The translations under genes and the position numbers were made by a program. 27,033 bases of DNA, from IMG/VR virus record IMGVR_UViG_2537562015_000005, positions 1-27,033 of that record. One strand, 5' to 3'. The notes beneath the pieces are model-generated. The model was given only the letters and a program-made list of their open reading frames with translations, was not told the origin of the DNA and ran no database searches. Below, one piece after another: positions 2,578 to 26,036 of this stretch; the first letter of the stretch is position 1; every line of letters starts with the position of its first letter. This stretch comes from a virus (lineage: Duplodnaviria; Heunggongvirae; Uroviricota; Caudoviricetes).

Positions 2578-2631
2578 TAAGTAATATGCAGGCGGCGCAG
2601 TGCGTCGCCTCTGACTGAAAGGAGTTTCCTG

Positions 2632-2997: not shown

Positions 2998-3161
2998 TCA
3001 CGGTTGTGTGCTTTGAGCACATAGAAGACTTTGTGGCAGATATTGCCGTTATTTTTAACTGGTCGCCCGCCGAAATCTTCATGATGACGCCCGGCGAAGT
3101 GGTTAGCTGGCGTGAGCGGGCGGCACTTCGCAGCGGGAATGCAGACAATGAAGACTCTTGA
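2632..3161 (+). CDS. E': gpE+E' fusion made by programmed -1 frameshift (join 2632..2948 with 2949..3161 in the -1 frame)
   Basis: Slippery TTTTTTG at 2943..2949. The -1 frame continues as ERCGLWREERTGDGSLITVVCFEHIEDF...WRERAALRSGNADNEDS and stops at 3161, overlapping the T start, as in the P2 E/E' arrangement. Confidence 0.7.
2943..2949 (+). other. Programmed -1 ribosomal frameshift slippery site (T_TTT_TTG) of the gpE/E' pair
   Basis: Heptamer read directly; frames on either side verified by hand translation. Confidence 0.7.
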
Positions 3162-5955: not shown

Positions 5956-5961
5956 GGAGTC

Positions 5962-6618: not shown

Positions 6619-6843
6619 ATGCTGAATAATAGAGATATGAATATTAATGAACTTAAAGACTGTATTCACTATGAAGTAATCGGTAGCGAGCGTCCTTTCT
6701 CCTGGCGAAAGGCAATTGTTCGCGCAATAAAACATAGAAGACTTCGTTATTTATTTTGGTGGCGCATAGCCAAATACCTTTTTGATAAAGGCGGATACTG
6801 CCGGAAGATTGCGGGGAAAATAGAACGTTTCATTCTTGGGTAG
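6619..6843 (+). pseudogene. N-terminal fragment of a putative hexapeptide-family (CysE/WbbJ-like) acetyltransferase, cut by IS1
   Basis: AT-rich 74-aa ORF with a helical N-terminal pattern (...LRYLFWWRIAKYLFDKGG..RKIAGKIERFILG) like the N-terminus of sugar O-acetyltransferases. Its stop codon TAG (6841..6843) lies inside the IS1 terminus (IS1 starts 6839). Family assignment is tentative. Confidence 0.3.
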
Positions 6844-6853
6844 TGACTCCAAC

Positions 6854-7357
6854 TTACTGATAGTGTTTTATGTTCAGATAATGCCCGATGACCTTGTCAT
6901 GCAGCTCCACCGATTTTGAGAACGACAGTGACTTCCGTCCCAGCCTTGCCAGATGTTGTCTCAGATTCAGATTATGTCGCTCAATGCGCTGAGTGTAACG
7001 CTTGCTGATAACGTGCAGCTTTCCCTTCAGGCGTGATTCATACAGCGGCCAGCCATCCGTCATCCATACCACGACCTCAAAGGCCGACAGCAGGCTCAGA
7101 AGACGCGCCAGTGTGGCCAGAGTGCGTTCACCGAAAACGTGCGCCACAACTGTCCTCCGTATCCTGTCATACGCGTAAAACAGCCAGCGCTGACGTGATT
7201 TAGCACCGACGTAGCCCCACTGTTCGTCCATTTCCGCGCAGACAATCACATCACTGCCCGGTTGTATGCGCGAGGTTACCGACTGCGGCCTGAGTTTTTT
7301 AAGTGACGTAAAACCGTGTTGAGGCCAACGCCCATAATGCGGGCAGTTGCCCGGCAT
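6854..7357 (-). CDS. insB: IS1 transposase InsB (expressed as InsAB' by frameshift)
   Basis: 167 aa [18 protein letters not shown]...; canonical IS1 insB. Confidence 0.9.
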
Positions 7358-7551
7358 CCAACGCCATTCATGGCCATATCAATGATTTTCTGGTGCGTAC
7401 CGGGTTGAGAAGCGGTGTAAGTGAACTGCAGTTGCCATGTTTTACGGCAGTGAGAGCAGAGATAGCGCTGATGTCCGGCGGTGCTTTTGCCGTTACGCAC
7501 CACCCCGTCAGTAGCTGAACAGGAGGGACAGCTGATAGAAACAGAAGCCAC
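7276..7551 (-). CDS. insA: IS1 InsA
   Basis: 91 aa [39 protein letters not shown]...; canonical IS1 insA. Confidence 0.9.
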
Positions 7552-7760
7552 TGGAGCACCTCAAAAACACCATCATACACTAAATCAGTAAGTTGGCAGC
7601 ATCACCCAGGTTTGGCTCGAATAAAAGGTAAAACATTTGGTGCGTTACCGTTAGATAACAATAATCCATTTTGGCTAGATAATGATGCCGCCCCAGGGTT
7701 AAAAAAGAGCCTGGGGGATGTCACTAAGGCTGCATTTGATTTATGTGATAAGTAACTAAA

Positions 7761-8762
7761 ATGTCGGTTCGTAAGATTCCATCAGGTAAATGGCTTTGCG
7801 AATGTTATCCCTACGGGGCATCGGGAAAACGCATTCGTAAACAGTTTGCGACAAAAAGTGAGGCGCTCTCTTATGAGCGCCGTTTAATGAATAGTAGAGT
7901 TGGAGACGAGTTTCAAGATGGTTCTGGTCCTCGTCTTTCTGAGTTGATTGCTCGTTGGTTTGAGATGTACGGTAAAACCTTGTCCTCTGGTGCAGAGCGC
8001 AAAGTCAAACTTGAGGCGATTTGTTCCAGGCTGGGAGATCCATTTGCTTCTCAGTTTGACAAAAATATGTTTGCCACTTATCGGGAAAGAAGGTTATCAG
8101 GAGAGTGGAATCCCAAGGGGAAGAAAAAACTTAGTGAAGCAACCGTTAATCGCGAGCAGTCATATCTACATGCTGTTTTTGCCGAACTGAAGCGCCTTGG
8201 GGAGTGGTCTGGTGAAAACCCCCTGACTGGTATTCGCAAGTTTCGTGAGGAAGAAAAGGAACTGGCGTTTCTGTATGTAGATGAGATTGAACGCCTTCTG
8301 ATTGCGTGTGATGAGTCACGGAATAAAGATTTGGGGGTTGTTGTCCGTATTGGGCTTGCGACTGGTGCTCGGTGGAGTGAAGCAGAAGGGTTAAAGCAAT
8401 CTCAAGTACTGCCCGGTCGAATCACATTTGTTAAAACTAAAGGAAAGAAGAACCGCACTGTACCGATTTCACCTCAATTGCAGGCTATGCTTCCCAAAAA
8501 ACGAGGAGCGCTATTTTCACCATGTTATGAGGCTTTTGACGCTGCAATTAAGAGAGCGAAGATCGAGCTTCCTGATGGGCAATTAACTCATGTGCTACGT
8601 CACACGTTTGCCAGTCATTTTATGATGCGGGGCGGAAATATTCTTGTGTTGCAAAAAATACTGGGGCATAGCGATATAAAAATGACTATGCGTTATGCGC
8701 ATTTTGCTCCAGGTCATTTAGAGGCTGCTGTTGAATTGAACCCTTTTGACAATAGAGGGTAA
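7761..8762 (+). CDS. int: P2-type phage integrase (tyrosine recombinase)
   Basis: 333 aa; C-terminal catalytic region ...GARWSEAEGL...TFVKTKGKKNRTVPIS...HVLRHTFASHFMMRGGNILVLQKILGHSDIKMTMRYAHFAPGHLEAAVELNP closely parallels P2 Int as recalled. Sits next to a tRNA 3' fragment. Confidence 0.9.
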   Translation: MSVRKIPSGKWLCECYPYGASGKRIRKQFATKSEALSYERRLMNSRVGDEFQDGSGPRLSELIARWFEMYGKTLSSGAERKVKLEAICSRLGDPFASQFDKNMFATYRERRLSGEWNPKGKKKLSEATVNREQSYLHAVFAELKRLGEWSGENPLTGIRKFREEEKELAFLYVDEIERLLIACDESRNKDLGVVVRIGLATGARWSEAEGLKQSQVLPGRITFVKTKGKKNRTVPISPQLQAMLPKKRGALFSPCYEAFDAAIKRAKIELPDGQLTHVLRHTFASHFMMRGGNILVLQKILGHSDIKMTMRYAHFAPGHLEAAVELNPFDNRG

Positions 8763-8868
8763 AAAGTGGCGATAAAAAGTGACAATAGATTCAAATGGCG
8801 TTGTATAGAGCCATTTTCAAAGTTAATAAAATCATAAGGTTATGATTTATAAATGGTGGTTGATAGTT

Positions 8869-8923
8869 TTTAAAATCCCTCGGCGTTCGCGCTGTGCGGG
8901 TTCAAGTCCCGCTCCGGGTACCA
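8869..8923 (+). other. tRNA-Leu(UAA) 3' fragment (anticodon loop to CCA), attachment-site remnant
   Basis: TTTAAAATCCCTCGGCGTTCGCGCTGTGCGGGTTCAAGTCCCGCTCCGGGTACCA matches the 3' 55 nt of E. coli leuZ as recalled. The upstream sequence cannot form the acceptor or D arm, so this is not a complete tRNA. Confidence 0.75.
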
Positions 8924-8963
8924 TGGGAAAGACAAGAATAATCAAAGCAATAAGCAGTGTCGT

Positions 8964-8990
8964 GAAACCACCTACGGGTGGTTTTTTTGT
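8964..8990. terminator. Rho-independent terminator-like hairpin, possibly bidirectional
   Basis: AAACCACC-TACG-GGTGGTTT followed by a T-run, with an A-run before the stem. Lies between the tRNA fragment and the 3' end of the minus-strand gene 9024..9905. Confidence 0.55.
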
Positions 8991-9023
8991 GCCTGAAATT
9001 CACGCCCTGTGCATATCCTGTGC

Positions 9024-9905
9024 TCACGGGGTGCAATGAGCCGCAATCTCCAGCCTGGCAATGCCGAATCGAACGTGTCGCCTCCAGCATAGAGAACCAG
9101 GCCGCTTTGCCTGTTTTCCGGTACTCTTCCGGGAAGGGTGGCCTGCTGAGCAAGTTGTAATGCTCTGGCCGCCCTTAGTACAAAGTTGCTTAATTCGTGC
9201 AATCACCTCATCTCTGTACTTCTGGTGTCCGCGCATAGCCCTTGGATGGGCAATTCTGAAACAGATTGTATTACCTGTTTTGAACTCCCACAGCTTCCCC
9301 GGAATGACTGAAGAAGTCTCATAACCGCCCAGCTCAGTAAGCACCTGTTTAATGATGTAGTCTGTTCTCCGGGCTCCGGATGCAAAGATCATGAAATCAG
9401 GCTCAAGGTGTTTAATTTGTACCGCCAGCAGCTTCAGCGAGGCTAATATGACTTCCTGCACTTCATTTTGAGGGCGATTGAGAGGGGTCAGTCCGTCGTA
9501 ATCCCACGCCAGTAGATTGGCATACACGATAGCCTGAGGAGGAATATTAAGCTCCCGGGCCAGCCTGAAATGATATTGCGTGAAGCGGCTACGTGATTTG
9601 AGGTTGGTGGTGCCATCATTTTGTACCGGAAGATGTTTCCTGTAACGATCTACAGCTTCTTCAACCACCTGCCCGATGGTGACGTCAGGCATAAGTCCCA
9701 ACACCCGTGATATCGTATTCTTACCATTCAGCGTATTCCAGCCTGCGGTTTCACGTCTAACCAGCATGATTTTTACCGGTGAATGCCAGTATTCTTCAAA
9801 CGGCACGGGTAAAAAGACGCCTGAGTATTTATCTTCATTCAGGTTAAATGACTGGGCGTCAACTTCCTGTAATATCCGTTTGTACGCGTCTAATAGCCTT
9901 TCCAT
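9024..9905 (-). CDS. Hypothetical protein; C-terminal ~60 aa may not be native
   Basis: 293-aa ORF with an RBS; no family recognised. The last ~60 codons (about 9024..9200) are GC-rich and low-complexity (..GGQSITTCSAGHPSRKSTGKQAKRPGSLCWRRH..), unlike the rest of the gene. Confidence 0.5.
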   Translation of the reverse strand: MERLLDAYKRILQEVDAQSFNLNEDKYSGVFLPVPFEEYWHSPVKIMLVRRETAGWNTLNGKNTISRVLGLMPDVTIGQVVEEAVDRYRKHLPVQNDGTTNLKSRSRFTQYHFRLARELNIPPQAIVYANLLAWDYDGLTPLNRPQNEVQEVILASLKLLAVQIKHLEPDFMIFASGARRTDYIIKQVLTELGGYETSSVIPGKLWEFKTGNTICFRIAHPRAMRGHQKYRDEVIARIKQLCTKGGQSITTCSAGHPSRKSTGKQAKRPGSLCWRRHVRFGIARLEIAAHCTP

Positions 9906-9985
9906 TCTTCAATCCTGCCCCGTAATAAAAACACCTTCAGATATATATTATTTTCATGATATCAATCAGATATATGAGGATAAAT

Positions 9986-11185
9986 ATGCAAAAATCCTTC
10001 CGATTCACCAATTCATCCATCAAAGCCCTTCCGGCAAACACAGATACCCGATCTACAGAGCTTGAGGTATCCGATACTGAGGTCATTGGCCTCAAATGCC
10101 TCTCAGGTCGAACGGGTAACAAACGTTTCCTCCTGCGCTACACATTCCACGGTACCAAAAAAAGTATCAGTATTGGCAGATTCCCTGAAATTGATGTGGG
10201 GACAGCCCGTCAGATAGCTCGTCGTCACAAGGAGGCGATTGCACTGGGAAATGACCCTAAGGCAGAACGCGATAATTATCGTGCTATGCCAACGCTTAGT
10301 GAGTTTTTTCACCAGACCTATGTTCCGTTCATCAAACGCCATAAAAAGTCCTGGGATAAGGATGTTCAGCGTTTCACGCAATACATTGAACCTTGTCTGG
10401 GGAAGATACGTTACTGTGACCTTCGGGCCCGGGAAATCCAGCAGGTGCTTTTCGACATGCTTGAGGGTCGTATTCACGGGCAGCAATATGCGCCGTCTAC
10501 CTGTAACAGAGCCCTTGCTATTCTGAAAACGATGGGGCGTTATGCGTTGCGACAGGATGTGCTGGAAAAGAATGAAGCCGATAAGATCCCTTTACTGAAA
10601 GAGAATAATCAGCGGACGCGCTTTTTTGATGCTGATGAGATCAGGCGCATTCTTGACGCTGCTACCCAATATCCCAACAAAGCTGCCGGGGGATTGATAG
10701 CCATGTTGTTGTTAACCGGTACACGCAAAACAGAAATGCTTAATGTCAGGCATGAACATATCGACCGGGCCAATCGTACTCTGTTCATTCCTTATACAAA
10801 AAATGGTCGCAGTCGGACGGTATATCTAAGCGATGCCGCATTATCGATTATTGATGCTATCCCACGAGTTGGCAGTAATCCGTATCTGTTCGCCATTAAG
10901 GATAATGGCAAACCGATATCGGAACCCCGATGGGCATATGAAAAAATACTGGCACAGTGCGGTATAGACAAGAATGAAGTCTGTTTTCACACCACACGTC
11001 ATTCTGTTGCCTCTTTACTGGTTTCGAGTGGTCAATTCAGCCTGTATGACGTTAAAGCCCAACTGGCGCATGCCAGTATTCAGAGTACAGAACGTTACGC
11101 GAAATTAACACCGGAACGTATGCGTCAGACAGGGCAGGGAGTGACTGACCTGCTTCTGAATACTGCGGCTACGAAGCAGATGTGA
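9986..11185 (+). CDS. int: P4-type integrase (tyrosine recombinase)
   Basis: ATG at 9986 preceded by GAGGA (the track ORF starts upstream at 9956 in the same frame). N-terminal arm-binding-type region plus C-terminal catalytic region (..LLLTGTRKTEM..HTTRHSVASLL..ERYAKL). Confidence 0.85.
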   Translation: MQKSFRFTNSSIKALPANTDTRSTELEVSDTEVIGLKCLSGRTGNKRFLLRYTFHGTKKSISIGRFPEIDVGTARQIARRHKEAIALGNDPKAERDNYRAMPTLSEFFHQTYVPFIKRHKKSWDKDVQRFTQYIEPCLGKIRYCDLRAREIQQVLFDMLEGRIHGQQYAPSTCNRALAILKTMGRYALRQDVLEKNEADKIPLLKENNQRTRFFDADEIRRILDAATQYPNKAAGGLIAMLLLTGTRKTEMLNVRHEHIDRANRTLFIPYTKNGRSRTVYLSDAALSIIDAIPRVGSNPYLFAIKDNGKPISEPRWAYEKILAQCGIDKNEVCFHTTRHSVASLLVSSGQFSLYDVKAQLAHASIQSTERYAKLTPERMRQTGQGVTDLLLNTAATKQM

Positions 11186-12484: not shown

Positions 12485-12566
12485 TTTATTTCCTGCACTG
12501 TTATACAACCAGAAATCACCACACACCACTATTTACTTTCTAAAGGAAAATGGTAGTGACTCCAAC

Positions 12567-13070
12567 TTACTGATAGTGTTTTATGTTCAGATAATGCCCG
12601 ATGACCTTGTCATGCAGCTCCACCGATTTTGAGAACGACAGTGACTTCCGTCCCAGCCTTGCCAGATGTTGTCTCAGATTCAGATTATGTCGCTCAATGC
12701 GCTGAGTGTAACGCTTGCTGATAACGTGCAGCTTTCCCTTCAGGCGTGATTCATACAGCGGCCAGCCATCCGTCATCCATACCACGACCTCAAAGGCCGA
12801 CAGCAGGCTCAGAAGACGCGCCAGTGTGGCCAGAGTGCGTTCACCGAAAACGTGCGCCACAACTGTCCTCCGTATCCTGTCATACGCGTAAAACAGCCAG
12901 CGCTGACGTGATTTAGCACCGACGTAGCCCCACTGTTCGTCCATTTCCGCGCAGACAATCACATCACTGCCCGGTTGTATGCGCGAGGTTACCGACTGCG
13001 GCCTGAGTTTTTTAAGTGACGTAAAACCGTGTTGAGGCCAACGCCCATAATGCGGGCAGTTGCCCGGCAT
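12567..13070 (-). CDS. insB: IS1 transposase InsB
   Basis: Identical to 6854..7357. Confidence 0.9.
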
Positions 13071-13264
13071 CCAACGCCATTCATGGCCATATCAATGATT
13101 TTCTGGTGCGTACCGGGTTGAGAAGCGGTGTAAGTGAACTGCAGTTGCCATGTTTTACGGCAGTGAGAGCAGAGATAGCGCTGATGTCCGGCGGTGCTTT
13201 TGCCGTTACGCACCACCCCGTCAGTAGCTGAACAGGAGGGACAGCTGATAGAAACAGAAGCCAC
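12989..13264 (-). CDS. insA: IS1 InsA
   Basis: Identical to 7276..7551. Confidence 0.9.
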
Positions 13265-13314
13265 TGGAGCACCTCAAAAACACCATCATACACTAAATCA
13301 GTAAGTTGGCAGCA

Positions 13315-14139
13315 TCACCCAGAGTATACAATGCTTAAAATTATGGCGTTACTTATATTATTAATTGCAGTTGGGTAAATATGCAGGTTGCTTATCAATT
13401 CTGAAAGGCAAAGTAAAACACCAGTGATGTTAGGTTTTCTGCCAGATATTGTGGTGGTGTTGAAAATGTGCCGATTCTTACGACTTATATTGACAAATTT
13501 ATGAGTGCAGAACTCTATATGTTCGACGATTTTATCTTGACTATTTTTAATGTATTTTGAAATGTTAGTGATTCGTCCATTCAACGTTAGCTCATCAAGT
13601 AATATGTCATTTTTAATACTGCGAATTTCATCGCAATGTTTAGATTCAAAAACTATCTCATGTAATACATAACTCGACGTATTGCGGGGTGACGCTGATA
13701 TGTAATCTAAAATAGAAGGCTCGATTTTGATTTTTTGTTTGTATTTTTTAATGCACTGTTTGATTATTTTTTGTAGAGTATTTGAGATGTGTTTTTTATA
13801 TTCTTTTAGAAAATCATGCTCTAAAAAGAGTGAGGAGAAGATCAACTGCTGGCGAGATAATTTAATCTCAGGCTTGATCAATTTAATCCGGAAAACTCTT
13901 CCCTCCAACTCATAGCTGAACATGGAAGATAAGTCATAGTGGGGTGATAAATGTTCGAGTAACGACATTCGTGTATTCATTAGCCGCTTGAATTTATGGT
14001 CAGCATACATAAGTATTTTTTTTATTTGCTCATCGTAAAGTGGGCCGATAACGCAATTAGCAATACTCATACTATCCGGAGACCTCCAGTCAACAGGGGA
14101 ATCACATTGACGGCCACCATTACAATCAAAGGGTATCAA
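13315..14139 (-). CDS. AT-rich hypothetical protein (K/I/N-rich), probably truncated at the 3' end by IS1; likely start near 14071 (MSIANCVIG...)
   Basis: Visibly AT-rich ORF, foreign to its neighbours. Its stop codon (13315..13317) lies inside the IS1 terminus (IS1 ends 13319). Divergent from hsdM. No family recognised. Confidence 0.5.
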   Translation of the reverse strand: MIPFDCNGGRQCDSPVDWRSPDSMSIANCVIGPLYDEQIKKILMYADHKFKRLMNTRMSLLEHLSPHYDLSSMFSYELEGRVFRIKLIKPEIKLSRQQLIFSSLFLEHDFLKEYKKHISNTLQKIIKQCIKKYKQKIKIEPSILDYISASPRNTSSYVLHEIVFESKHCDEIRSIKNDILLDELTLNGRITNISKYIKNSQDKIVEHIEFCTHKFVNISRKNRHIFNTTTISGRKPNITGVLLCLSELISNLHIYPTAINNISNAIILSIVYSG

Positions 14140-14442: not shown

Positions 14443-16029
14443 ATGAACGACAAAATCAGTCAGGACACGATCAACAAAGCCCTGTGGGCCGCGTGTGATA
14501 CGTTCCGTGGCACCATCAGTGCTGATACCTATAAAGACTTTATCCTTACCATGCTGTTCCTTAAGTACATTTCGGATGTCTGGCAGGATCATTACGATGA
14601 ATATAAAAAACAGTATGGTGATGCACCAGAACTCATTGAAGCCATGATGTCGAATGAACGTTTCGTATTGCCGAAAAGCGCCAGTTTCTATGCGCTGTAT
14701 GAACGTCGTCATGAACCGGGCAATGGTGAGCGCATCGACCAGGCTCTGCATGCGATTGAAGAAGCTAATGGCACCAAACTGAAAGACGCCGGGAAAAGCG
14801 TGTTCCAGGATATTTCGTTTAACACCGATCGCCTAGGTGAAGAAAAACAGAAGAACACCATCCTGCGTCAGCTGCTGGAAGACTTTGCCGGTCAAGATCT
14901 TAACCTGAAGCCGAGCCGTGTCGGTACGCTGGACGTTATCGGTAATGCCTACGAATATCTGATCAAAAACTTTGCTGCCAGCGGTGGGCAGAAAGCCGGG
15001 GAATTCTATACCCCACCAGAAGTTTCGGACCTGATTGCAGAACTGCTCGATCCGCAACCGGGTGATACCATCTGCGATCCGGCCTGTGGTTCCGGTTCAT
15101 TATTGATGAAGTGTGGGCGTAAAATTGTCTCCGGGCATGATAGTCGTAACTATGCATTGTTCGGTCAGGAAGCGATCGGTTCTACGTGGTCGCTGGCGAA
15201 AATGAATATGTTCCTGCACGGGGAAGACAACCATAAAATCGAGTGGGGCGATACCATTCGTAACCCGAAGCTGCTCGATAAAAATGGCGACCTGATGCTG
15301 TTTGATATCGTGACCGCTAACCCACCGTTCAGCCTCGATAAGTGGGGCCATGACGAGGCCGAGAACGATAAGTTTGGCCGTTTTCGTCGCGGTGTACCGC
15401 CGAAGACTAAAGGCGATTACGCCTTTATCTCACATATGATCGAAACCCTGAAACCAGGAACGGGGCGTATGGGCGTAGTTGTGCCACACGGTGTGCTGTT
15501 CCGTGGTTCCAGCGAAGGTAAAATTCGCCAGAAACTGATCGACGAAAATCTGCTGGATGCCGTCATTGGCTTGCCGGAAAAACTGTTCTACGGTACAGGT
15601 ATTCCTGCTGCGATTCTGATTTTCAAAAAACAGAAAGTGGATGACAAGGTACTGTTTATCGATGCCAGCCGTGAATATAAGGCGGGCAAAAACCAGAACC
15701 AGCTCAGCGCAGAAAATATCCAGAAGATCGTTAACACCTATCGTGAAGGCGATAACGTCGAGAAATACGCCTATCTCGCCAGCCTGAAAGAGATTCAGGA
15801 CAACGACTATAACCTTAATATTCCACGCTATGTCGATACCTTTGAGGAAGAAGACGAAATTGATTTGCTGGCGGTACGTGCTGAGCGTGAGCAACTGAAA
15901 GCGGAACTGGTAAAGCTGGAAATGGAGATGGCTGGGTATTTGAAAGAATTAGGGTACGATTGGCAGAAAGATTCCGAGGGCACACAAAAAATAAACTCTG
16001 CGGAAGTGAATTTTGGAGATTTTGAATGA
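14443..16029 (+). CDS. hsdM: Type I restriction-modification N6-adenine DNA methyltransferase HsdM
   Basis: 528 aa; AdoMet motif DPACGSGSLL and catalytic NPPF; N-terminal HsdM-type helical domain. Confidence 0.95.
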   Translation: MNDKISQDTINKALWAACDTFRGTISADTYKDFILTMLFLKYISDVWQDHYDEYKKQYGDAPELIEAMMSNERFVLPKSASFYALYERRHEPGNGERIDQALHAIEEANGTKLKDAGKSVFQDISFNTDRLGEEKQKNTILRQLLEDFAGQDLNLKPSRVGTLDVIGNAYEYLIKNFAASGGQKAGEFYTPPEVSDLIAELLDPQPGDTICDPACGSGSLLMKCGRKIVSGHDSRNYALFGQEAIGSTWSLAKMNMFLHGEDNHKIEWGDTIRNPKLLDKNGDLMLFDIVTANPPFSLDKWGHDEAENDKFGRFRRGVPPKTKGDYAFISHMIETLKPGTGRMGVVVPHGVLFRGSSEGKIRQKLIDENLLDAVIGLPEKLFYGTGIPAAILIFKKQKVDDKVLFIDASREYKAGKNQNQLSAENIQKIVNTYREGDNVEKYAYLASLKEIQDNDYNLNIPRYVDTFEEEDEIDLLAVRAEREQLKAELVKLEMEMAGYLKELGYDWQKDSEGTQKINSAEVNFGDFE

Positions 16030-17123
16030 CTCTTAAATGGGAAAAGGTTCGTTTAGGAGATGTCGCAGAATTACAACGTGGTTTTGATCTACCCAGTACT
16101 AAGCGTATTGAAGGGGAGATTCCTATTGTTTCATCAAGTGGAATAACAGGCTTCCATGTTGAAGCGAAGGCAAAGGCTCCAGGAGTTGTCACTGGGCGAT
16201 ATGGTTCGATTGGTGATGTTTTTTATTTAGAACAGGATTTTTGGCCATTAAATACATCCTTATGGGTTAAAGATTTTCATGGAAATGACGAAAAATTTAT
16301 CTACTTTCTGTTGAGTAACTTTGACTTTAAAAAATTTAGTGACAAAACAGGTGTGCCCGGTGTTAACCGTAATGACTTGCATGCAGTGAATGTATTACTG
16401 CCGCCACTCTCGGAGCAAAAGAAAATCGCCCAAATCCTGTCAACCTGGGATAAAGCTATTTCGGTGACGGAAAAGCTTCTCACCAACAGCCAGCAGCAGA
16501 AAAAAGCCCTGATGCAGCAATTACTTACCGGGAAGAAACGCTTGCTGGATGAGAGGGGGGGCAGGTATGGTGGTGAGTGGCATCGTGCTGAGCTTGGCGC
16601 AGTTTTAGATTATATGCAGCCAACCCCTTATCTAGTTGATTCTACTGATTATAATGATAGTTACTCAATCCCAGTTCTTACAGCAGGTAAAAGTTTCATT
16701 CTTGGCTATACCAATGAAGAACATGGTATTTATCATGCACCTTTGCCTGCCATAATTTTTGATGATTTCACGACTGATAGTAAGTTCGTCGATTTTGAAT
16801 TCAAAGCAAAATCCAGTGCGATGAAAATTCTTACAGCCAAAAAAGGAGTATCTGCAAAGTATATTTTTGAAGCAATGCAAATGTTGAAATTTAAAATAGG
16901 TGGGCATCAGCGGCATTGGATTTCAATTTATTCCAACTTAGTAATACCTATTCCAGATGCCAAGGAACAACAAAAAATCGCCGCCGTCCTTTCCGCTGCA
17001 GACGCCGAAATCTCCACACTGGAGAAAAAACTCGCCTGCCTGAAAGACGAGAAAAAAGCCCTGATGCAGCAGTTACTGACCGGAAAACGTCGGGTGAAAA
17101 TCGATGAGGCTGTTGCTGCATGA
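16026..17123 (+). CDS. hsdS: Type I R-M specificity subunit HsdS
   Basis: 365 aa with two target-recognition domains separated by conserved helical repeats (QQKKALMQQLLTGKKRL and EKKALMQQLLTGKRRV). ATGA overlap with hsdM. TRD2 is visibly more AT-rich. Confidence 0.9.
   Translation: MTLKWEKVRLGDVAELQRGFDLPSTKRIEGEIPIVSSSGITGFHVEAKAKAPGVVTGRYGSIGDVFYLEQDFWPLNTSLWVKDFHGNDEKFIYFLLSNFDFKKFSDKTGVPGVNRNDLHAVNVLLPPLSEQKKIAQILSTWDKAISVTEKLLTNSQQQKKALMQQLLTGKKRLLDERGGRYGGEWHRAELGAVLDYMQPTPYLVDSTDYNDSYSIPVLTAGKSFILGYTNEEHGIYHAPLPAIIFDDFTTDSKFVDFEFKAKSSAMKILTAKKGVSAKYIFEAMQMLKFKIGGHQRHWISIYSNLVIPIPDAKEQQKIAAVLSAADAEISTLEKKLACLKDEKKALMQQLLTGKRRVKIDEAVAA
16500..16540 (+). repeat. hsdS conserved central repeat; direct repeat partner at 17052..17089
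   Basis: AAAAAAGCCCTGATGCAGCA(A/G)TTACT(T/G)ACCGG occurs twice within hsdS, about 550 bp apart. Confidence 0.8.
17052..17089 (+). repeat. hsdS conserved C-terminal repeat; partner of 16500..16540
   Basis: See partner repeat. Confidence 0.8.
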
Positions 17124-17803
17124 AACTGACGAAAAGTGGTCCACTGACTGACCGGGAAATCGACTGGCTGGAAGAGGTGTTGATGAAATACGGCAATGAT
17201 GACTCTGTGCTCTGTTTCTCTGAGCTGGATGGCTTTCTGACGGCGATTGTCTCTGGCCCGAATACGATTTCCCCTAATACCTGGCTCAGTGCTATCTGGG
17301 GGCGAGGTGATTACCACCCTCGCTGGACCACTGAAAAAGAGATGACGCGTTTTGTGGGGCTGTGTTTTCAGCATATGAACGATATCGCTGGCTGCCTGTA
17401 TGAGGCCCCTGAACAGTTTGAACCGATTTTCAATGAGCGTGAGGTAAAGGGGGAAAAATATACCATTGTGGAAGAGTGGTGTTTTGGTTATATGAAAGGA
17501 AAGTCACTGGATGACTGGTCTGGTCTTCCCGGTGAGTTACGGCCTTCTCTGGAAGTGATCGCTCTTCATGGCGTGGAGAAGAATTTTCCTGTACTTGAGA
17601 AAATGACCGGAGAGCAGTTTGAGAAAAGTATTTCCCTTATTCAGCCTGCTGCACTGGCACTTTATCAGTACTGGTTGTCAGTGAGAATGTCAGAGGCATC
17701 ATCCCGGCCTGTTCCAGTGAAGGGGGCAGAAAACATGCCCGGGCGAAATGACCCGTGTCCGTGTGGCAGCGGTAAAAAATTTAAGAAGTGCTGTCTGCAT
17801 TGA
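17120..17803 (+). CDS. YecA-like protein (UPF0149 domain + C-terminal SEC-C zinc-binding motif) embedded in the hsd operon
   Basis: 227 aa ending GRNDPCPCGSGKKFKKCCLH (SEC-C motif as in the SecA C-terminus and YecA). N-terminal region resembles YecA. Start overlaps the hsdS stop (ATGA). Confidence 0.8.
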   Translation: MKLTKSGPLTDREIDWLEEVLMKYGNDDSVLCFSELDGFLTAIVSGPNTISPNTWLSAIWGRGDYHPRWTTEKEMTRFVGLCFQHMNDIAGCLYEAPEQFEPIFNEREVKGEKYTIVEEWCFGYMKGKSLDDWSGLPGELRPSLEVIALHGVEKNFPVLEKMTGEQFEKSISLIQPAALALYQYWLSVRMSEASSRPVPVKGAENMPGRNDPCPCGSGKKFKKCCLH

Positions 17804-17852: not shown

Positions 17853-20800
17853 ATGATGAACCAGACGTACACGCCAAAATTCCAGGAAGAATACAGCGCC
17901 AAAATTCCGGCACTGACGTTACTGACCAGCCTCGGCTGGACGTTTTTATCTCCGAAACAGATTATGGATTACCGGGGCTATAAACAGGATGAGGTGGTGC
18001 TGCGTCCGGTTCTGCGTGAAGAGCTGTCGAAGCGTTCCTTTATGGCGGGTGGCAAAACCTGCCAGTTATCGGAAAAAGCACTGGATAACCTGATATCACA
18101 GGTCTGTTCTCCGGCGCTCAATGAAGGGCTGCTCAAAGCCAATGAACGGATGTATAACCATCTGCTCTACGGTATCGCCGTCACGGAGTTTGTCGATGGC
18201 AAGAAGGTCAACCCCACCATTGCGCTGATCGACTGGGAACATCCGGAAAATAACCAGTTCCATTTTACTGAAGAATTTACGGTATTGCGGTCAGGTGGTG
18301 TTGAAACCCGGAGGCCAGATATTGTCTGCTTTGTTAATGGTATCCCGCTGGCTGTTATTGAAGCGAAAAGCCCGGCTGGTCATGGCAAGAAAGGGCCAAC
18401 CATTGACGAGGGGATATCCCAGAGTATCCGCAACCAGTTCAACGATGAAATCCCGCAGCTGTTTGTCTACAGCCAGTTATTACTTTCGATTAACGGTCAT
18501 GACGGGCGCTACGGTACATGCCATACGCCAATGAAATTCTGGGCGGCATGGCGCGAAGAAGATATTACCGATGCGCAGATGTATGCTCTGCGCAACCATC
18601 CTTTATCGACTGAACAAATTCATGCGTTGTTTGATCATCGTCCATCAGCCGATCTCAACTGGTACCAACAGTTAATCGCCGCCGGTGAACTGGCTGTCAG
18701 TGGACAGGACAAACTGCTCATCAGCCTGCTTTCGCCGGAACGTCTGCTGGAGATGACCCGCTTCTTCACTCTGTTTGATAAAAAGACCGGGAAAATTGTC
18801 GCCCGCTATCAGCAGGTGTTCGGTATTAAAAGACTGCTGGAGCGCATCAGTACCCGCAGACCCGATGGGGGCAGGGAAGGTGGTGTTATCTGGCATACCA
18901 CCGGCTCTGGCAAATCGTACACCATGGTGTTCCTCAGCAAGGCGCTGATTCTTCATGACAGCCTGAAGCGGTGTCGTATCGTGGTGGTGACGGACCGTAT
19001 CGATCTTGAAGAACAGCTCAGCAGTACCTTTGCATCCGGCGGCGAGTTGGCCGGGAAAAAAGACAAAGCCAATGCAATGGCGACATCCGGGCAGATGCTG
19101 GCGAAACAGATTGGCTCTGGTAAAGAACGCATCATTTTCACCCTAATCCAGAAATTTAATTCAGCGACAAAACTTCCTGAATGCGTCAATACCAGCCCCG
19201 ATATCATCGTTCTGATTGATGAAGGACACCGTAGCCAGGGTGGTGAGAACCATGTGCGAATGAAACTGGCACTGCCGAACGCCGCCTTTGTAGCATTTAC
19301 TGGTACGCCATTGCTAAAAGAAGATAAGACCACCAATAAATTCGGACCGATTGTCCACGCTTATACCATGCAGCGAGCGGTAGAAGATAAAGCCGTTACA
19401 CCTTTGCTGTATGAAGAACGTATTCCCGACCTTGAGGTTAACGATCGGGCAATAGATGCCTGGTTTGATCGTATTACCGATGGGTTAAGCGAAGCGCAAA
19501 AAGCCGACCTTAAGCGTAAATATGCCCGTAAAGGTGAGGTTTATAGTGCAGATGATCGCATCCGTCTGATCGCACTCGATATCGCCACGCACTTCTCGAA
19601 GAATATTGATGAGGGACTGAAAGGCCAGCTTGCCTGCGACAGCAAGATTTCCGCCATCAAATATAAAAAGTATCTTGATGAAGCCGGGTTGTTTGAGTCA
19701 GCTGTAGTTATCAGCCCGCCGGATACCCGGGAAGGGAATACTGAGGTGGATGAAAGCAAACTGCCGGAAGTGACGAAATGGTGGAAAGATAACGTCGGCA
19801 CGCAGGATGAGTCTGTGTATACCCGCAATATCATCAGTCGTTTCGATACCGATGAGAAGCTCAAATTGCTGATAGTCGTTGATAAACTGCTCACCGGGTT
19901 TGATGAGCCGAAGAATACCGTGCTGTATATCGACAAGCCGCTTAAGTCCCACAACCTTATCCAGGCGATTGCGCGGGTGAACCGACTGCATCCACTAAAA
20001 AAGTTCGGTCTGCTGATTGATTATCGCGGTATTCTGGCTGAGCTGGACACGACTATCGGCAAATATCAGGACCTCGCCTCCCGAACTCAGGGCGGATACG
20101 ACATCAAAGATATTGACGGGCTGTACAGCGCCATGAGCTCTGAATACAAGCGCCTGCCGCATCTGTATAACCAGCTGTGGGCCATATTTGCTGGTGTCAA
20201 AAACAAAAATGATACTGAGCAGTTACGTGCGGTACTGGTGCCTAAAATGGAAGAACGTGACGGAGAGATGGTCGATATCCATCAGAAAACCCGTGATGAT
20301 TTCTTCGAGGCGTTAACGGCCTTTGCCGGATGCCTGAAAGTGGCATTGCAGTCCGCCACCTTCTTCACCGACAAGAGCTTTACGGAACAAGACCGAAATC
20401 TCTATAAAGAAACCGTAAAACAGATGTCCAGCCTGCGCCAGTGGGCGATGCAGGTAAGTGGAGAGCAGGTCAATTATGACGACTACGCTGAGCAGGTGAA
20501 AAAACTGCTGGATAAGCATGTCACCGGCGTTGAGGTTCGTGAACCGGATGGCGTGTATGAAGTCGGTAAAATGGGCAAGAGCGAAAAGCCCGAAGAGTGG
20601 GACAACAATAAAACCCGCAATGAAACCGACATCATTAAAACCCGTGTGACAAAGATGATTGAGCAGGAGCTGCGTGATGACCCGTATGCTCAGGAAGCCT
20701 TTTCAAAACTCCTGCGTATGGCTATTGAAGAGGCTGAAAAACTGTTCGACCATCCGTTGAAACAGTATCTCTTGTTCCGTGAATTTGAAGAACAGGTTGA

Positions 20801-21140
20801 AGCCCGTAAGCTCAGCGATATCCCGGATGCACTGGCGGTAAACAAGCATGCTCAGGCGTATTACGGTGTATTTAAAAAAGAGCTACCAGAGGTTTTTGCG
20901 GTAAACGACGTTCAGGTGCAGGATAAGTGGACGAAGCTGGCTTTTGAAGTGGACAACATTATCGTCAAAGCGGTGGCAGAAAACTCCCTGAACCCACAGG
21001 ATATTGAAAAAGCCGTTAAGACAAGTCTTTTGCCGCTGCTGTTTACGGCCTGCCGGGAGATGGGTGCCGGAATGAATCAGGTTAACCGTATTGTGGAAAC
21101 CATCATCCAGATACTGCGCGTTGGTTTGATGAAATCATGA
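17853..21140 (+). CDS. hsdR: Type I restriction enzyme R subunit HsdR (EcoR124-like, probably type IC)
   Basis: 1095 aa; nuclease region (FVNGIPLAVIEAKS), helicase motifs (GGVIWHTTGSGKS, LIDEGHRSQ, FTGTP, LLTGFDEP, QAIARVNR) colinear with EcoR124 HsdR as recalled. Confidence 0.95.
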   Translation: MMNQTYTPKFQEEYSAKIPALTLLTSLGWTFLSPKQIMDYRGYKQDEVVLRPVLREELSKRSFMAGGKTCQLSEKALDNLISQVCSPALNEGLLKANERMYNHLLYGIAVTEFVDGKKVNPTIALIDWEHPENNQFHFTEEFTVLRSGGVETRRPDIVCFVNGIPLAVIEAKSPAGHGKKGPTIDEGISQSIRNQFNDEIPQLFVYSQLLLSINGHDGRYGTCHTPMKFWAAWREEDITDAQMYALRNHPLSTEQIHALFDHRPSADLNWYQQLIAAGELAVSGQDKLLISLLSPERLLEMTRFFTLFDKKTGKIVARYQQVFGIKRLLERISTRRPDGGREGGVIWHTTGSGKSYTMVFLSKALILHDSLKRCRIVVVTDRIDLEEQLSSTFASGGELAGKKDKANAMATSGQMLAKQIGSGKERIIFTLIQKFNSATKLPECVNTSPDIIVLIDEGHRSQGGENHVRMKLALPNAAFVAFTGTPLLKEDKTTNKFGPIVHAYTMQRAVEDKAVTPLLYEERIPDLEVNDRAIDAWFDRITDGLSEAQKADLKRKYARKGEVYSADDRIRLIALDIATHFSKNIDEGLKGQLACDSKISAIKYKKYLDEAGLFESAVVISPPDTREGNTEVDESKLPEVTKWWKDNVGTQDESVYTRNIISRFDTDEKLKLLIVVDKLLTGFDEPKNTVLYIDKPLKSHNLIQAIARVNRLHPLKKFGLLIDYRGILAELDTTIGKYQDLASRTQGGYDIKDIDGLYSAMSSEYKRLPHLYNQLWAIFAGVKNKNDTEQLRAVLVPKMEERDGEMVDIHQKTRDDFFEALTAFAGCLKVALQSATFFTDKSFTEQDRNLYKETVKQMSSLRQWAMQVSGEQVNYDDYAEQVKKLLDKHVTGVEVREPDGVYEVGKMGKSEKPEEWDNNKTRNETDIIKTRVTKMIEQELRDDPYAQEAFSKLLRMAIEEAEKLFDHPLKQYLLFREFEEQVEARKLSDIPDALAVNKHAQAYYGVFKKELPEVFAVNDVQVQDKWTKLAFEVDNIIVKAVAENSLNPQDIEKAVKTSLLPLLFTACREMGAGMNQVNRIVETIIQILRVGLMKS

Positions 21141-21892
21141 GTGAAAAAGAATCGCCATCAATGAAAGCGTTACGCATTGTTTATGGTGATGAGGTCATCA
21201 CCGTACAGTGTGTTCCGCGTCAGGTCGTAAAGGGCAGGGTGCTCATCAAGGTTTATCCGGACTGCCGGGTTGTGGCCTCTGTACCGCCTGAAACACCGGA
21301 GCACGAGGTATTGTCTGCGCTGAAAAAACGAGGGCGCTGGATATACCAGCAACTGCGTGATTTCAGGGTGCAACAGACACACATTGTTCCGCGTCAGTAT
21401 GTCAGCGGAGAAAGCCATTATTATCTCGGTAAGCAATATCAGTTGAAAGTGACAGAAGACGCTACTGTGCCGCAACGAGTGAAAATGTTGCGTGGGCGTC
21501 TGGAAGTGACTGTCAGACACAAATCGGCAGAAAAGATTAAAGCCTTGCTGGCTGAATGGTATCGGGAACGCGCCAGAGATGTTTTTCAGCGCAGGCTTGA
21601 TTTACTGATTCCGCAGACCCTTTGGGTCAGTGAGCGTCCTCCGATACGTCTGCGGGCGATGCAAACGCAATGGGGCAACTGCTCTGCAAAAGGCTGTCTG
21701 ACCCTGAATCCATGGCTGGTTAAGGCATCCTCAGAATGTATCGATTATGTCTTGCTACATGAGTTATGCCATGTGGCTGAGCACAACCATAGTGAGGAGT
21801 TTTACCGCTTGATGGGGCAGGTTATGCCGGGGTGGGAAAAGGTTAAGAAGCGACTGGATGGTATGGCTGGGATGTTGTTGGCAGATATGTAG
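21137..21892 (+). CDS. HExxH zinc metallopeptidase-like protein (DUF45/YgjP-like), translationally coupled to hsdR
   Basis: 251 aa with LLHELCHVAEHNH (HExxH) near the C-terminus; start overlaps the hsdR stop (ATGA). Confidence 0.8.
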   Translation: MSEKESPSMKALRIVYGDEVITVQCVPRQVVKGRVLIKVYPDCRVVASVPPETPEHEVLSALKKRGRWIYQQLRDFRVQQTHIVPRQYVSGESHYYLGKQYQLKVTEDATVPQRVKMLRGRLEVTVRHKSAEKIKALLAEWYRERARDVFQRRLDLLIPQTLWVSERPPIRLRAMQTQWGNCSAKGCLTLNPWLVKASSECIDYVLLHELCHVAEHNHSEEFYRLMGQVMPGWEKVKKRLDGMAGMLLADM

Positions 21893-21923: not shown

Positions 21924-22525
<602 letters not shown>

Positions 22526-22546: not shown

Positions 22547-24001
22547 ATGATGGAGAGCATTAATAATCAAGTGCAGTCGGTACGCCAGTTGCTGGCCATT
22601 CCCCAACTGGCCATCCCAAGCTATCAGCGACCTTACCGCTGGGGCTCCAAGAATATCTCGGATCTCTTTACCGATTTGGCAACCCATCAGGACAAGAGCG
22701 CCTACCGGCTGGGCTCGGTGGTGTTTCATCAGCACACCGATAGTGAGCAGGGCGAGATGCTTGATATCGTCGATGGTCAGCAACGCACCCTGACCCTGAT
22801 GTTGACCGTCAAGGCGCTGATCGAGGTGCTGGATAACGAAAATCGCAGTGGCAAAGAGAAGAGTATCCGGTTTCAACGTCAGGATCTGCGTGAGCAATTG
22901 CAGGTCTTGCGTGGACCTATCGATGCGTTTATGCAGCGCCAGCGCTTCCCCAGCCGGGATTCGGAGTTCAACCTCAGACGTAACTATCTGGAGTTGCGTC
23001 GGCTGGTGGCCCGCCCTGAGTTTGACGAGCAGCAAATTGACTTTCTGCTCAACCGCTGTCAGGTGGTCTGCTTTGTACTGCAGGATATCTCGGAGGCGTT
23101 CCAGTTCTTCGATTCGCAAAATGCCCGGGGGCGCGATCTGGCTCCTCACGATCTGCTCAAGGCATTTCACCTGCGCGAGTTTGCCGGTCATGAGGCCAAT
23201 CTCAAGGCCGAGGCGGTCGCCCATTGGGAGCGCCAGCCAAGCGACGAGCTGGCCAATCTGTTCGCCCTCTATCTCTATCGGGTACGCCAGTGGGCCGAGG
23301 GCAAGTCGGCCCGCTACTTTGGCAAGGGGGAGGTGGATCTCTTCAAGGGGGTCAACCTAGATCGGGTAGGGCATTATCCTTACGTGGAGTCGCTGCGCAT
23401 CGCCCACCACTTTGTCGATGAGTACAACAGCCAGTACCAGCGCAAGATTGACGGCCAGTACATGACGTTTCCCTTTCATCTCGACCAGATGATCATCAAT
23501 GGTCGGCGCTTTTTCGAGATGGCCGAGTACTACCAGACGCGGGTGGCCGCCATCGTGGCCGAGGAGTCTGATTCCGGCAAGGCGCAATCTGCCACCCTGC
23601 TCGGCGAAACGCTGACACCGATGGCCAGCAAGGTGCTATCGACCCTGGGCAGCTACGAGCGTCGCCACCGCACCGGGGATCGTTATGTGCGGGCCATGTT
23701 CGACTGCGCCCTGATCTTCTATATCGACAAGTTCGGCAGCCAAGGGCTGTCACTGGCCATCGAGAAGTGCTTTATCTGGGCCTATCGCTGCCGCATCCGC
23801 CAGCAGGTAGTGCAGTTGGCAACCATGGATAACTATGTGCTGGAGCACAATCTGATCCGTGCCATTCGTGATGCTCGTCTGCCGGGAGATCTGCACGGCT
23901 TCCCTTTGCCTAGCATGAGCAGTCGAGAGAACAAGAACAATCGCAATGGTGCCGAAGATGAGCTGGTCGGGCTGTTTCGGGAGATGAAATATTATGAATG
24001 A
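22547..24001 (+). CDS. DUF262-domain protein (ParB-like/GmrS-like N-terminal module; no nuclease motif seen)
   Basis: 484 aa; N-terminal motifs [10 protein letters not shown] and [12 protein letters not shown], then [22 protein letters not shown]. High GC. Overlaps the next gene by 8 nt. Confidence 0.8.
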
Positions 24002-26036
24002 TGCAGGCGTTCGCCCCTTTTCCATTCGTGCACTGCTTGAAGATCGCGCCCGCTATCTGGTGCCCATGTACCAGCGCAACTATGCCTGGGGTGAGGGAGA
24101 GATCACCCAGCTGCTGCAGGATGTGCTGGATTATCAGCAAAAATTGGTCAGTGGTAAGGGGCCGCAAACCTACTATATCGGCACCCTGGTGGTGTTTGCC
24201 CGGGACGATGGCAGTTTCGAGGTAATCGATGGCCAGCAGCGCTTTACTACCCTCTCTCTGCTGGCCAATTGGCTCAAACATCACGCGATAGATTCGGTGG
24301 ATATGAGCTGGTATCAGACCATCAACCTCGCTTTTGAGAGTCGCCCGATATCGAGCCATACCTTCGAGCGCTTATGGCAGGGTGTTGCCCCCGACGATTT
24401 GCGGGGGAGTACCTTCAATGAAGGTTTGGTGAACGGTTTTGAGCTGATTGGCAAGGCAATGGCGGATCTTGGTTTGGTAGGGGCTAAACTGACGGCCTTT
24501 TGCGACTACCTCTTCAAGCATGTGCAGATCTCTCGTATCGAAGTACCCAAGGATACCGATCTCAATCACTTCTTCGAGGCGATGAACAATCGCGGCGAGC
24601 AGTTGGAAAAGCATGAAGTGATCAAGGCGCGGCTGATGGAGACGCTGAACCAGATACCCGAGGAAGAGCATCGTCGCCAAAGTATTCATATCCTGACCCG
24701 GGTATGGGATGCCTGCGCCAATATGGAGCGCTATATCCAGTACGGCTTTACCCCGCAAGAGCGCCACCGTCTGTTTGGTGAGAGCGACTGGGGTCAGTTT
24801 GTGCCCCGTGATTTTGCCCATCTGCTTGAACTGCTAGGATCCCCAAACACGGCCGACGCTGCCGATAAAAGCCGTGCAGCTGCCGGTAGCCAAGGGCGCA
24901 CCTTGTTGGCCATTTTGCAGGATGACAAGCTTGATGGTGAGCAGACGGTGGAGGAGGAGAGCGCAGGCTCCGAGCGCTTTAACAGCGTCATCAACTTCTC
25001 CAACTTCTTGCTCCATGTGCTGCGACTCGTGAGCCGCGACCCGGGTGATACGGAGGGGGTGCCGCTTGATGATAAACAACTGGTCGATCAGTTTGAGCTG
25101 CGAGTGATAAGGCAACCGGATCCAGTAGCGGCAGTTCAGCGTTTTATCTATGGCCTGTTAAAGAGCAAGTATCTGTTTGATCAGTTCATCATCAAGCGCG
25201 AGTTTGCCGATGGCAAGGATAGTTGGAGTCTGAAGCGGCTGCACTGGTATTCGGAAAAGAGCGTCAGTTACATCAATACCTTTGACAAGGATGAAAATGA
25301 GAATGGTTTCTCTGGTGTTAACCGGCGGGTCCTGATGTTGCTGTCGGCGTTTCATGTGTCGACCCCGACCCTGGTTTACAAACATTGGCTGAATGGTGCA
25401 CTGAGATATCTGTTCGACAATTGTCACCCTGATCAACCGGTGGATGCCGGGGCTTATCTGTCCTATCTGGAGAGTCAGGCTCGCCGCTTTGTCTTCCAGC
25501 GCTTTTTGGCGCCTGGTGAAGGGGCTTCCTATTACCAGATGCTCTACCTTGATAACGCCCTGTTGCCCGCCATCAATGTGGATGAGAGTTGGCACAAGGT
25601 GATTACATCCAAACTTCGCTTCGGTCATATCGAGAACAACTTTGTCTTCAACTTCCTTGACTATCTGCTGTGGGTACGAGATCGGAATAGCGACAAAGTT
25701 GCTGGCTCCTTTGAGTTCACTTTCCGCAGCTCGGTGGAGCACTTCTCACCCCAGCATCCGATGGATGGCTATAAACCGGTTGAGCAGAGTGCACTCCATT
25801 CGTTTGGCAACCTTTGCCTTATCAGCCACAGCAAGAACTCGCGCTTGAGTAACTTCCAGCCGCAACAGAAGCAGGAGCACTTTGAAGCAAGCCTTGCCAA
25901 TAACCAGACTGATAGTCTTAAATTGCTTGCTATGATTCGGCTGATGAAAGATAAAGGTCGTTGGCTGGAAGATGAGATAGCTGAGCATCAACAAGATATG
26001 TTGCAGGTCTTACTATCCAATCAAATTCAGCAATAA
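23994..26036 (+). CDS. DUF262 + DUF1524 protein (GmrSD-like, candidate type IV / modification-dependent endonuclease)
   Basis: 680 aa; N-terminal [38 protein letters not shown]; C-terminal His-Me-finger-like region [15 protein letters not shown]...[20 protein letters not shown]. High GC. Confidence 0.85.

Follow-up and report, generated by a model that had tools for sequence, protein, structure and literature searches.

Does a run of seven guanines within the specificity gene of a Type I restriction-modification system operate as a reversible switch, or is it an incidental product of the codons that compose it? The question is raised by a stretch of 27,033 nucleotides assigned to a virus of the class Caudoviricetes (IMG/VR record IMGVR_UViG_2537562015_000005, positions 1 to 27,033; hereafter "the window", by which the whole stretch analyzed is meant), in which such a tract (G7) lies in the hsdS gene, at the boundary between the central conserved repeat and the second target-recognition domain (TRD). 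The original prediction, made without database searches, held that a one-base slip would truncate HsdS and pointed to phase variation driven by homopolymeric tracts in the hsdS genes of some bacteria; two direct repeats in the gene were further proposed to mediate TRD deletion or exchange. Here, we describe the length of the tract across genomes and assemblies, its evolutionary origin, and the lesions found in related hsdS genes. We conclude, with a probability of roughly 0.8, that the G7 is a by-product of Arg and Gly codons and acts as a hot spot for frameshifts, at a low rate and in one direction, in a Type I hsdS of the standard, module-shuffling kind.

Architecture of hsdS and consequences of a one-base slip

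The features of hsdS that bear on the question, all on the plus strand, are as follows.

16026-17123, plus strand: hsdS, Type I specificity subunit of 365 aa (PF01420, E 3.6e-30, two Methylase_S stretches)
16026-16394, plus strand: TRD1, aa 1-123, 38.9% GC
16395-16553, plus strand: central conserved helix D1, aa 124-176, LLPPLSEQKK...LLTGKKRLLDE, 29/53 identical to D2
16554-16586, plus strand: linker RGGRYGGEWHR, from D1 to TRD2, derived form of the family-wide NGVRFSGEW
16555-16561, plus strand: G7 homopolymer, codons AGG GGG GGC (R177 G178 G179), read from the sequence
16574-16576, plus strand: TGA met after a +1 slip (G8)
16587-16940, plus strand: TRD2, aa 188-305, 35.5% GC, homologue of the EcoR124I/II N-terminal TRD
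16606-16608, plus strand: TAG met after a -1 slip (G6), in the frame of the natural G6 alleles
16614-16616, plus strand: in-frame ATG (M197), taken by the gene caller as the start of a 169-aa downstream half-open reading frame (ORF) in split alleles (P0031, P0002)
16941-17123, plus strand: C-terminal conserved helix D2 plus tail (VIPIPDAKEQQK...LLTGKRRVKIDEAVAA) and stop codon

Direct reading of the sequence confirmed the placement of the tract: positions 16551-16565 (GAG AGG GGG GGC AGG) are in frame with the 365-aa ORF and encode E176 R177 G178 G179 R180, the central conserved helix ends ...KKALMQQLLTGKKRLLDE, and the tract follows LLTGKKRLLDE. The second TRD is as AT-rich as had been described (35.5% GC versus 48-51% in the conserved regions and helices). 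TRD1 is shared, at 97-98% identity, with E. coli alleles that possess a different TRD2. The TRD2 region (16587-16997, aa 188-324) aligns with the N-terminal TRD of EcoR124I/II (7bst_A, residues 19-160, E 1.3e-42), with most positions identical. This EcoR124I/II domain reads GAA in the target GAA N6 RTCG and, judging by the alignment, the TRD2 half-site of the present enzyme is probably GAA/TTC.

The predicted truncation after TRD1 and the central repeat follows from a slip in either direction. With G6, translation would terminate at the TAG to yield a 193-aa product ending ...LLDERGAGMVVSGIVLSLAQF, compared to 365 aa for the full-length protein, and with G8, at the TGA, to yield a 183-aa product ending ...LLDERGGQVWW; both predicted products retain TRD1 and the whole D1 helix. 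The gene thus carries an intra-ORF repeat tract whose change in length shifts the frame, a property of phase-variable hsdS genes.

Tract length across genomes and assemblies

All complete E. coli genomes with the tract (23/23) carry G7. In 17 of these, mostly enterotoxigenic E. coli (ETEC) of the O6:H16 type (2014EL-1346-6, TW10598, FORC_031), hsdS is 100% identical to that of the window; the remaining six, which have other TRD1s or an hsdS truncated by IS1, were read directly (L001-L003) or scored from indel-free alignments (H19, H22, H23). Three metagenome contigs also carry G7. More broadly, among all the sequences listed, 583 contigs encode 40 distinct full-length, in-frame ERGGR proteins, in which the linker is combined with at least 10 unrelated TRD1s. 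Exact-sequence look-ups in a collection of 15 billion proteins gave the following counts of products for five TRD1 alleles.

Window TRD1 allele (exact window HsdS protein): 243 full-length G7 contigs; G6 product absent; G8 absent
L002 TRD1 allele: 87 full-length G7 contigs; G6 product absent; G8 absent
L003 TRD1 allele: 61 full-length G7 contigs; G6 product present (2 contigs); G8 absent
L011 TRD1 allele: 21 full-length G7 contigs; G6 present (seen in DNA); G8 absent
L010 TRD1 allele: 8 full-length G7 contigs; G6 present (seen in DNA); G8 absent

The look-ups thus returned no G8 product for any of the five alleles, and in-frame G4 (ERGR) and G10 (ERGGGR) products were absent for the window, L002, and L003 alleles. 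G6 assemblies were traced via the 169-aa downstream half-ORF of split hsdS, after which the DNA was read, yielding six cases (ERR3549146, ERR3831474, SRR30896482, CP164631.1, ERR1622072, and SRR31599436) that represent at least three independent events. Overall, about 1% of the approximately 590 related assemblies depart from G7, each by -1, and about 99% are G7. With 583 in-frame contigs against six G6 assemblies, the length polymorphism in both directions that is expected among isolates of a phase-variable locus is not seen. The tract, at 7 bases, is also shorter than the minimum of 9 bases required for mononucleotide tracts in a survey of hsdS repeats in REBASE, in which it was noted that G7 can vary in Neisseria (PMC7383803).

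G6 alleles and other lesions in hsdS

The G6 alleles recur in separate data sets. ERR3549146 and ERR3831474, two different runs, share a G6 allele within otherwise identical sequence, and SRR30896482 and the complete genome CP164631.1 are identical over 3.7 kb, both with G6. Both hsdM and hsdR, the genes for the modification and restriction subunits, are called full length in ERR3549146, ERR3831474, ERR1622072, and SRR31599436. The SRR30896482/CP164631.1 lineage possesses an additional A9-to-A7 change in hsdS, at the start of D1, and its hsdR call comes to no more than 299 aa in the assembly of SRR30896482; these lesions point to decay, with no reversion.

Other runs in hsdS vary as well. For the window allele, A6 runs yielded one -1 (P0008) and one +1 (P0052) variant versus zero variants in the length of the G7. 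A sibling allele in E. coli 2015-01-2097 contains, where the central helix begins, an uninterrupted A9 (L003:1498-1506; GAG CAA AAA AAA ATC, encoding EQKKI), homologous to window positions 16417-16425, where a G breaks the run (A4GA4). Length variants of this A9 in the databases comprise A7, A8, and A10 (P0029, P0028, and P0018; L097 and L100); the length is more polymorphic than at G7, and in both directions. Frameshifts in EQKKI were considered as an equal-length control and found unsuitable, given that the A9 of the sibling allele is a longer tract; the A6 runs are the better controls. A further candidate, strain 300081 (L001), the single complete genome with a match one base short, proved not to be a tract variant: an A is lost in GGAAAG (A3-to-A2), and the gene is also cut by IS1. 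The alleles with the IS1 insertion and the A3-to-A2 change make up a small clone. In SRR9616017 (L096:1229-1495), codon 76 of TRD1 is fused to GTGGTGAGTGG just past the G tract through a deletion of about 390 bp; the remainder of TRD1 is missing along with D1 and the tract itself, which represents another independent route of loss. Other lesions strike hsdS at a frequency similar to that of G6.

Origin of the tract in a conserved linker

A G7 or C7 run occurs once in the 27-kb window versus 2.05 expected, and at least one such run was present in 79 of 100 dinucleotide-preserving shuffles; because the single run observed compares with a shuffle mean of 2.05, the G7 is not above chance. Next, 80 loci from other species, encoding the same HsdS family, were fetched by a protein-guided search and the homologous codons were read. 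The consensus linker in these loci is LLD(E/K)NGVRFSGEW, encoded by GAT GAG/AAG AAT GGG GTG AGG TTT AGT GGG GAG TGG, and none of the 80 contains a run of seven or more G at the homologous position. In a few species (L023, L035, and L046), G6-G7 runs occur at other Gly codons of this Gly/Arg/Glu-rich linker, which matches the chance expectation for GGN, AGG, and GAG codons. An exact-pattern scan for the tract with a variable gap returned no match in a collection of species-representative genomes.

The linker series was read from 120 cluster representatives that possess the TRD2 of the window. ENGVRF, present in many genera, is the ancestral linker; ENGVRY was found in two representatives (Citrobacter), ERGVRY or ERGVKY in 27 (Enterobacter, Citrobacter, and E. 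coli), and ERGGRY, which carries the G7, in 37, among which the named ones are nearly all E. coli. In strain 2EC1, the DNA at the ERGV linker reads AGG GGG GTG (G6TG). None of the 120 representatives contains an expanded Gly run in the linker. The TRD1 of the window was also found with G179V, which interrupts the tract, on 12 contigs. This allele series and the G179V allele show that point substitutions within a conserved linker gave rise to the G7. The route led, recently, from AAT GGG GTG (Asn-Gly-Val) through AGG GGG GTG (Arg-Gly-Val) to AGG GGG GGC (Arg-Gly-Gly).

Hot spot or switch

The tract is 99% modal in length, varies in one direction, is evolutionarily young, is interrupted in sister alleles, and is accompanied by further lesions in one lineage, and for these reasons we regard it as a weak hot spot of mutation. 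Any G run of 7 bases is a modest hot spot of replication slippage, and here an occasional lineage drops one G and is left with a TRD1-plus-D1 half and an untranslated or inactive remnant of TRD2. The rarity of such alleles (about 1% of assemblies), their single direction, and the additional lesions of one lineage fit sporadic loss of function rather than a reversible, selected switch. We infer that slippage per generation is a low-rate process in mismatch-repair-proficient E. coli; indel rates in this species climb exponentially with run length (PMC8510543).

Several points weigh against this reading. In Neisseria, the G7 tracts of NgoAV and pptA are on record as phase-varying at high rates (cited in PMC7383803 and PMC9577141). 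A few clones, such as ETEC O6:H16, account for many of the 583 contigs, which hence are non-independent, and consensus assemblies are blind to minority tract lengths within a culture. Different alleles lost one G at this site on at least three occasions, G7 becoming G6, which makes the tract more mutable than an average site. Finally, the split might do more than abolish function, given that the G6 product could form an active homodimer that recognizes a new, palindromic target. Helices D1 and D2 are identical at 29 of 53 positions (55%), which makes a homodimer of half-HsdS plausible, and helix similarity is thought to permit D1-D1 zippering in the EcoR124I(delta50), EcoDXXI, and NgoAV homodimers (PMC3874165). 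For the other half, the 169-aa downstream ORF has M197 as its start, a residue within the first TRD2 strand in the alignment to EcoR124II S; inspection revealed no obvious ribosome-binding sequence ahead of this codon, and the product is probably inactive.

A true contingency locus of the NgoAV type would alternate reversibly between full-length HsdS, with an asymmetric bipartite target, and a half-HsdS homodimer, with a palindromic TRD1 target, giving rise to mixed methylomes and changing restriction barriers. The architecture is that of NgoAV, with a G7 at the 3' end of the part encoding TRD1 plus helix (PMC9577141), the similarity of D1 and D2 is of the kind required for a D1-D1 zipper (PMC3874165), and split alleles with G6, in which the hsdM and hsdR calls are intact, occur naturally in at least three lineages. 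Nevertheless, we consider this explanation unlikely. The non-modal share is 35%, in both directions, at NgoAV (PMC9577141), against about 1% here, with no +1 change in five alleles; the tract is young, and many sister alleles, one of which has the same TRD1, carry it interrupted as G6TG; one G6 lineage gained further frameshifts without reverting; and the tract is shorter than the 9-base threshold. Mismatch repair is active in E. coli, a species that is not known to use homopolymer contingency loci. The proposal that the tract drives phase variation is thus not supported, in view of its near-uniform length, with no G8, G4, or G10 product in the alleles tested, its shortness and recent origin, its absence from orthologous linkers, and the accumulation of lesions in a G6 lineage. 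In a narrower version of the same idea, the G7 would give this widespread enterobacterial Type I family a rare switch that depends on mismatch repair and is sharply raised in natural mutators, with the G6 half-HsdS homodimer re-targeting methylation and restriction to the palindrome of the TRD1 half-site. We give this version little credence; if true, a repeat-driven switch of Type I specificity would be documented in E. coli for the first time, and the homodimer would be the first half-HsdS homodimer shown outside Type IC, where none has been reported (PMC3874165).

The opposite possibility, that the tract is entirely stable and that the G6 alleles stem from errors in sequencing or assembly, draws on the facts that five of the six G6 assemblies are automated (Logan) assemblies of public read sets and that homopolymers are error-prone on some sequencing platforms. 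It is very unlikely, because the same G6 allele was recovered in two runs with otherwise identical sequence (ERR3549146 and ERR3831474), because G6 is present in a deposited complete genome (CP164631.1) that matches an independent run (SRR30896482) over 3.7 kb, and because errors would be expected in both directions, yet no G8 was seen. An action of the G-rich stretch GAGAGGGGGGG on RNA, as an internal Shine-Dalgarno-like element for the start of a separate TRD2 protein or as a site of programmed frameshifting or transcriptional slippage, is suggested by an ATG at 16567-16569, 5 nt past the purine-rich run. This ATG and the next GTG are, however, out of the hsdS frame and open an ORF of only 13 codons that ends at 16606-16608, grounds on which internal initiation and programmed frameshifting at the purine run were both rejected; moreover, the first in-frame start is M197 (16614), which has no such element ahead of it, and the motif is absent from orthologous linkers, so that an RNA-level role appears exceedingly improbable.

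The distinction between a hot spot and a switch has consequences for how such loci are read. If the tract were a real switch, it would imply Neisseria-style epigenetic and restriction phase variation in E. coli, with barriers to gene flow in ETEC and other lineages that fluctuate within clones. The evidence indicates the opposite: the run is recent, stable coding sequence that now and then inactivates hsdS, as do several other ordinary processes in the decay of Type I systems. When an assembly shows G6 here, the call is probably genuine and denotes a split hsdS, and predictions of methylation motifs for G6 strains should not presume a bipartite target. A literature search found no methylome paper for these ETEC strains.

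Direct repeats and TRD reassortment

The two direct repeats reported in hsdS are present, in slightly adjusted positions, 552 nt apart and in frame with each other.

16498-16534, plus strand: direct repeat copy 1, coding QKKALMQQLLTGK in D1; 37 nt, 92% identical to copy 2
17050-17086, plus strand: direct repeat copy 2, coding EKKALMQQLLTGK in D2; 37 nt, 92% identical to copy 1

The proposal that these repeats mediate TRD deletion or exchange holds in part: exchange across the conserved repeats is clear, and a TRD2 deletion product was not found, the 181-213-aa products predicted for a repeat-mediated in-frame deletion of TRD2 in four alleles being absent from the 15-billion-protein collection. 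With regard to exchange, seven complete genomes match only the 3' 711 nt of the gene (D1, linker, TRD2, and D2), at 96-99% identity, and five match only the 5' 529-541 nt (TRD1 plus D1), at 97-98% identity (H25-H29), such that the allele breakpoints are located in the D1 region. The TRD2 module is combined with at least 10 TRD1s, and the TRD1 of the window is combined with other TRD2s. These observations strongly support homologous recombination in the conserved helices, reassorting TRD1 and TRD2 modules, as the diversity mechanism demonstrably at work in this gene. Reassortment of TRDs across conserved repeats is the classical, already known Type I mechanism, and the diversity of the family thus stems from a process that is well understood.

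The Type I operon and its neighborhood

Besides hsdS, the operon and the adjoining gene comprise the following features.

14443-16029, plus strand: hsdM, 528 aa (PF02384, 3.6e-107; PF12161, 1.5e-22; TIGR00497, 280 bits, cut-off 243)
17120-17803, plus strand: YecA-like gene (UPF0149 plus SEC-C zinc motif), located between hsdS and hsdR, identified by domain matches
17853-21140, plus strand: hsdR, 1095 aa (HSDR_N, SWI2_SNF2, and T1R_D3-like domains; TIGR00348, 461 bits)
21137-21892, plus strand: gene for a YgjP-like metallopeptidase (PF01863, 1.3e-57), elsewhere annotated as an M48 family metallopeptidase

The three subunits have the composition of a Type I restriction-modification system: HsdM is an N6-adenine methyltransferase with the HsdM N-terminal domain, HsdS consists of two TRDs and two conserved helices, and HsdR combines an SF2 motor with an N-terminal nuclease domain. 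Overlaps join hsdM and hsdS (the hsdS start lies on the hsdM stop, ATGA), hsdS and the YecA-like gene, and hsdR and the YgjP-like gene. In the deposited annotation of what is probably this contig (ENA25197.1/ESS89258.1), HsdS is a protein of 245 aa that starts from an internal GTG (V121; 16386-17123) and would lack TRD1; the RefSeq call is the 365-aa form. All related loci, among them hundreds of Klebsiella plasmids, retain the YecA-like gene. In E. coli 2EC1, XPFI_3_2, and PS10-3, this gene is followed by a gene annotated as encoding a cold-shock-domain-containing protein of about 600-620 aa instead of hsdR (L004:2836-3711, L005:3217-3541, and L006:3295-3529).

Two IS1 copies in direct orientation (6839-7606 and 12552-13319), which have a 300-nt exact repeat in common, precede the operon, and a 376-nt partial IS1 in inverted orientation (21924-22299) lies just 3' of it; with IS1 copies on both sides, the operon is bracketed by IS1 sequence. 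Genes for a P2-like tail (sheath, tube, tape-measure-like, and GpU) terminate at IS1 and are followed by two integrase genes or fragments (1043-6456 and 7761-11185), and the Type I system is located in a prophage-adjacent island. Downstream of the operon (22547-26036) are two adjacent GmrSD-family (DUF262) genes, one with DUF7834 and the other with a GmrSD_C nuclease domain; in the complete genome, the GmrSD-family genes are followed by IS100 and the anti-phage gene Hhe (DUF4011). This succession of the GmrSD pair, IS100, and Hhe therefore marks the region as a defense island.

Comparison with known systems

One of the closest known systems is NgoAV, a Type IC system of N. gonorrhoeae FA1090, in which the G7 tract of hsdS1 phase-varies and changes specificity (PMC9577141). 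As in the present E. coli gene, the G7 lies between a part encoding TRD1 plus helix and a part encoding TRD2, and a one-base change sets half-length versus full-length HsdS. The half-length NgoAV form is an active homodimer that recognizes the palindrome GCA N8 TGC (PMC9577141, PMC3874165), compared to GCA N7 STCA for the fused form (PMC9577141). The two loci differ in their modal state: among 92 gonococcal strains, 60 carry G7, 15 G6, 7 G8, and 10 G9 (PMC9577141), so that in NgoAV the modal G7 is the split state and G6 to G9 are all common, whereas in the hsdS described here G7 is the in-frame state, with about 1% G6 and no G8 found.

Truncated HsdS of EcoR124I, HsdS(delta50), and of EcoDXXI::Tn5 also homodimerize and recognize a palindrome of the TRD1 half-site (PMC3874165). 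The premises that half-length HsdS can dimerize and change specificity, and that tracts in hsdS drive phase variation elsewhere, accordingly hold in the literature (PMC3874165, PMC9577141). Both truncated proteins retain TRD1 and helix D1, as would the predicted G6 and G8 products, and the N-terminal TRD of EcoR124I is closely homologous to the TRD2 of the window; these truncations are Type IC and experimentally tested, whereas half-HsdS proteins of the present family are known from sequence. HsdM scores 233 bits over about 490 aa against EcoR124II M and 99 bits against EcoKI M, and HsdR matches EcoR124 over the motor domain only (119 bits), which suggests that the system is nearer to EcoR124 than to EcoKI without being close to it and represents a family related to, yet distinct from, Type IC.

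Among enterobacterial hsdS genes, the catalogue of Atack et al. (2019) lists a G[12] tract in two genes of Salmonella enterica serovar India (PMC7383803), which, by its description, is likewise a mononucleotide G tract between a variable TRD1 and a shared TRD2; entry into this catalogue requires at least 9 bases, compared to 7 in the present tract. With respect to module exchange, the origin of StySQ from StySP and StySB and the EcoR124I/EcoDXXI hybrids involve the same TRD swap via the conserved central region (references in PMC7383803 and PMC3874165), and the hsdS gene of the window shows no essential difference from this classical reassortment, of which it is an instance in another family.

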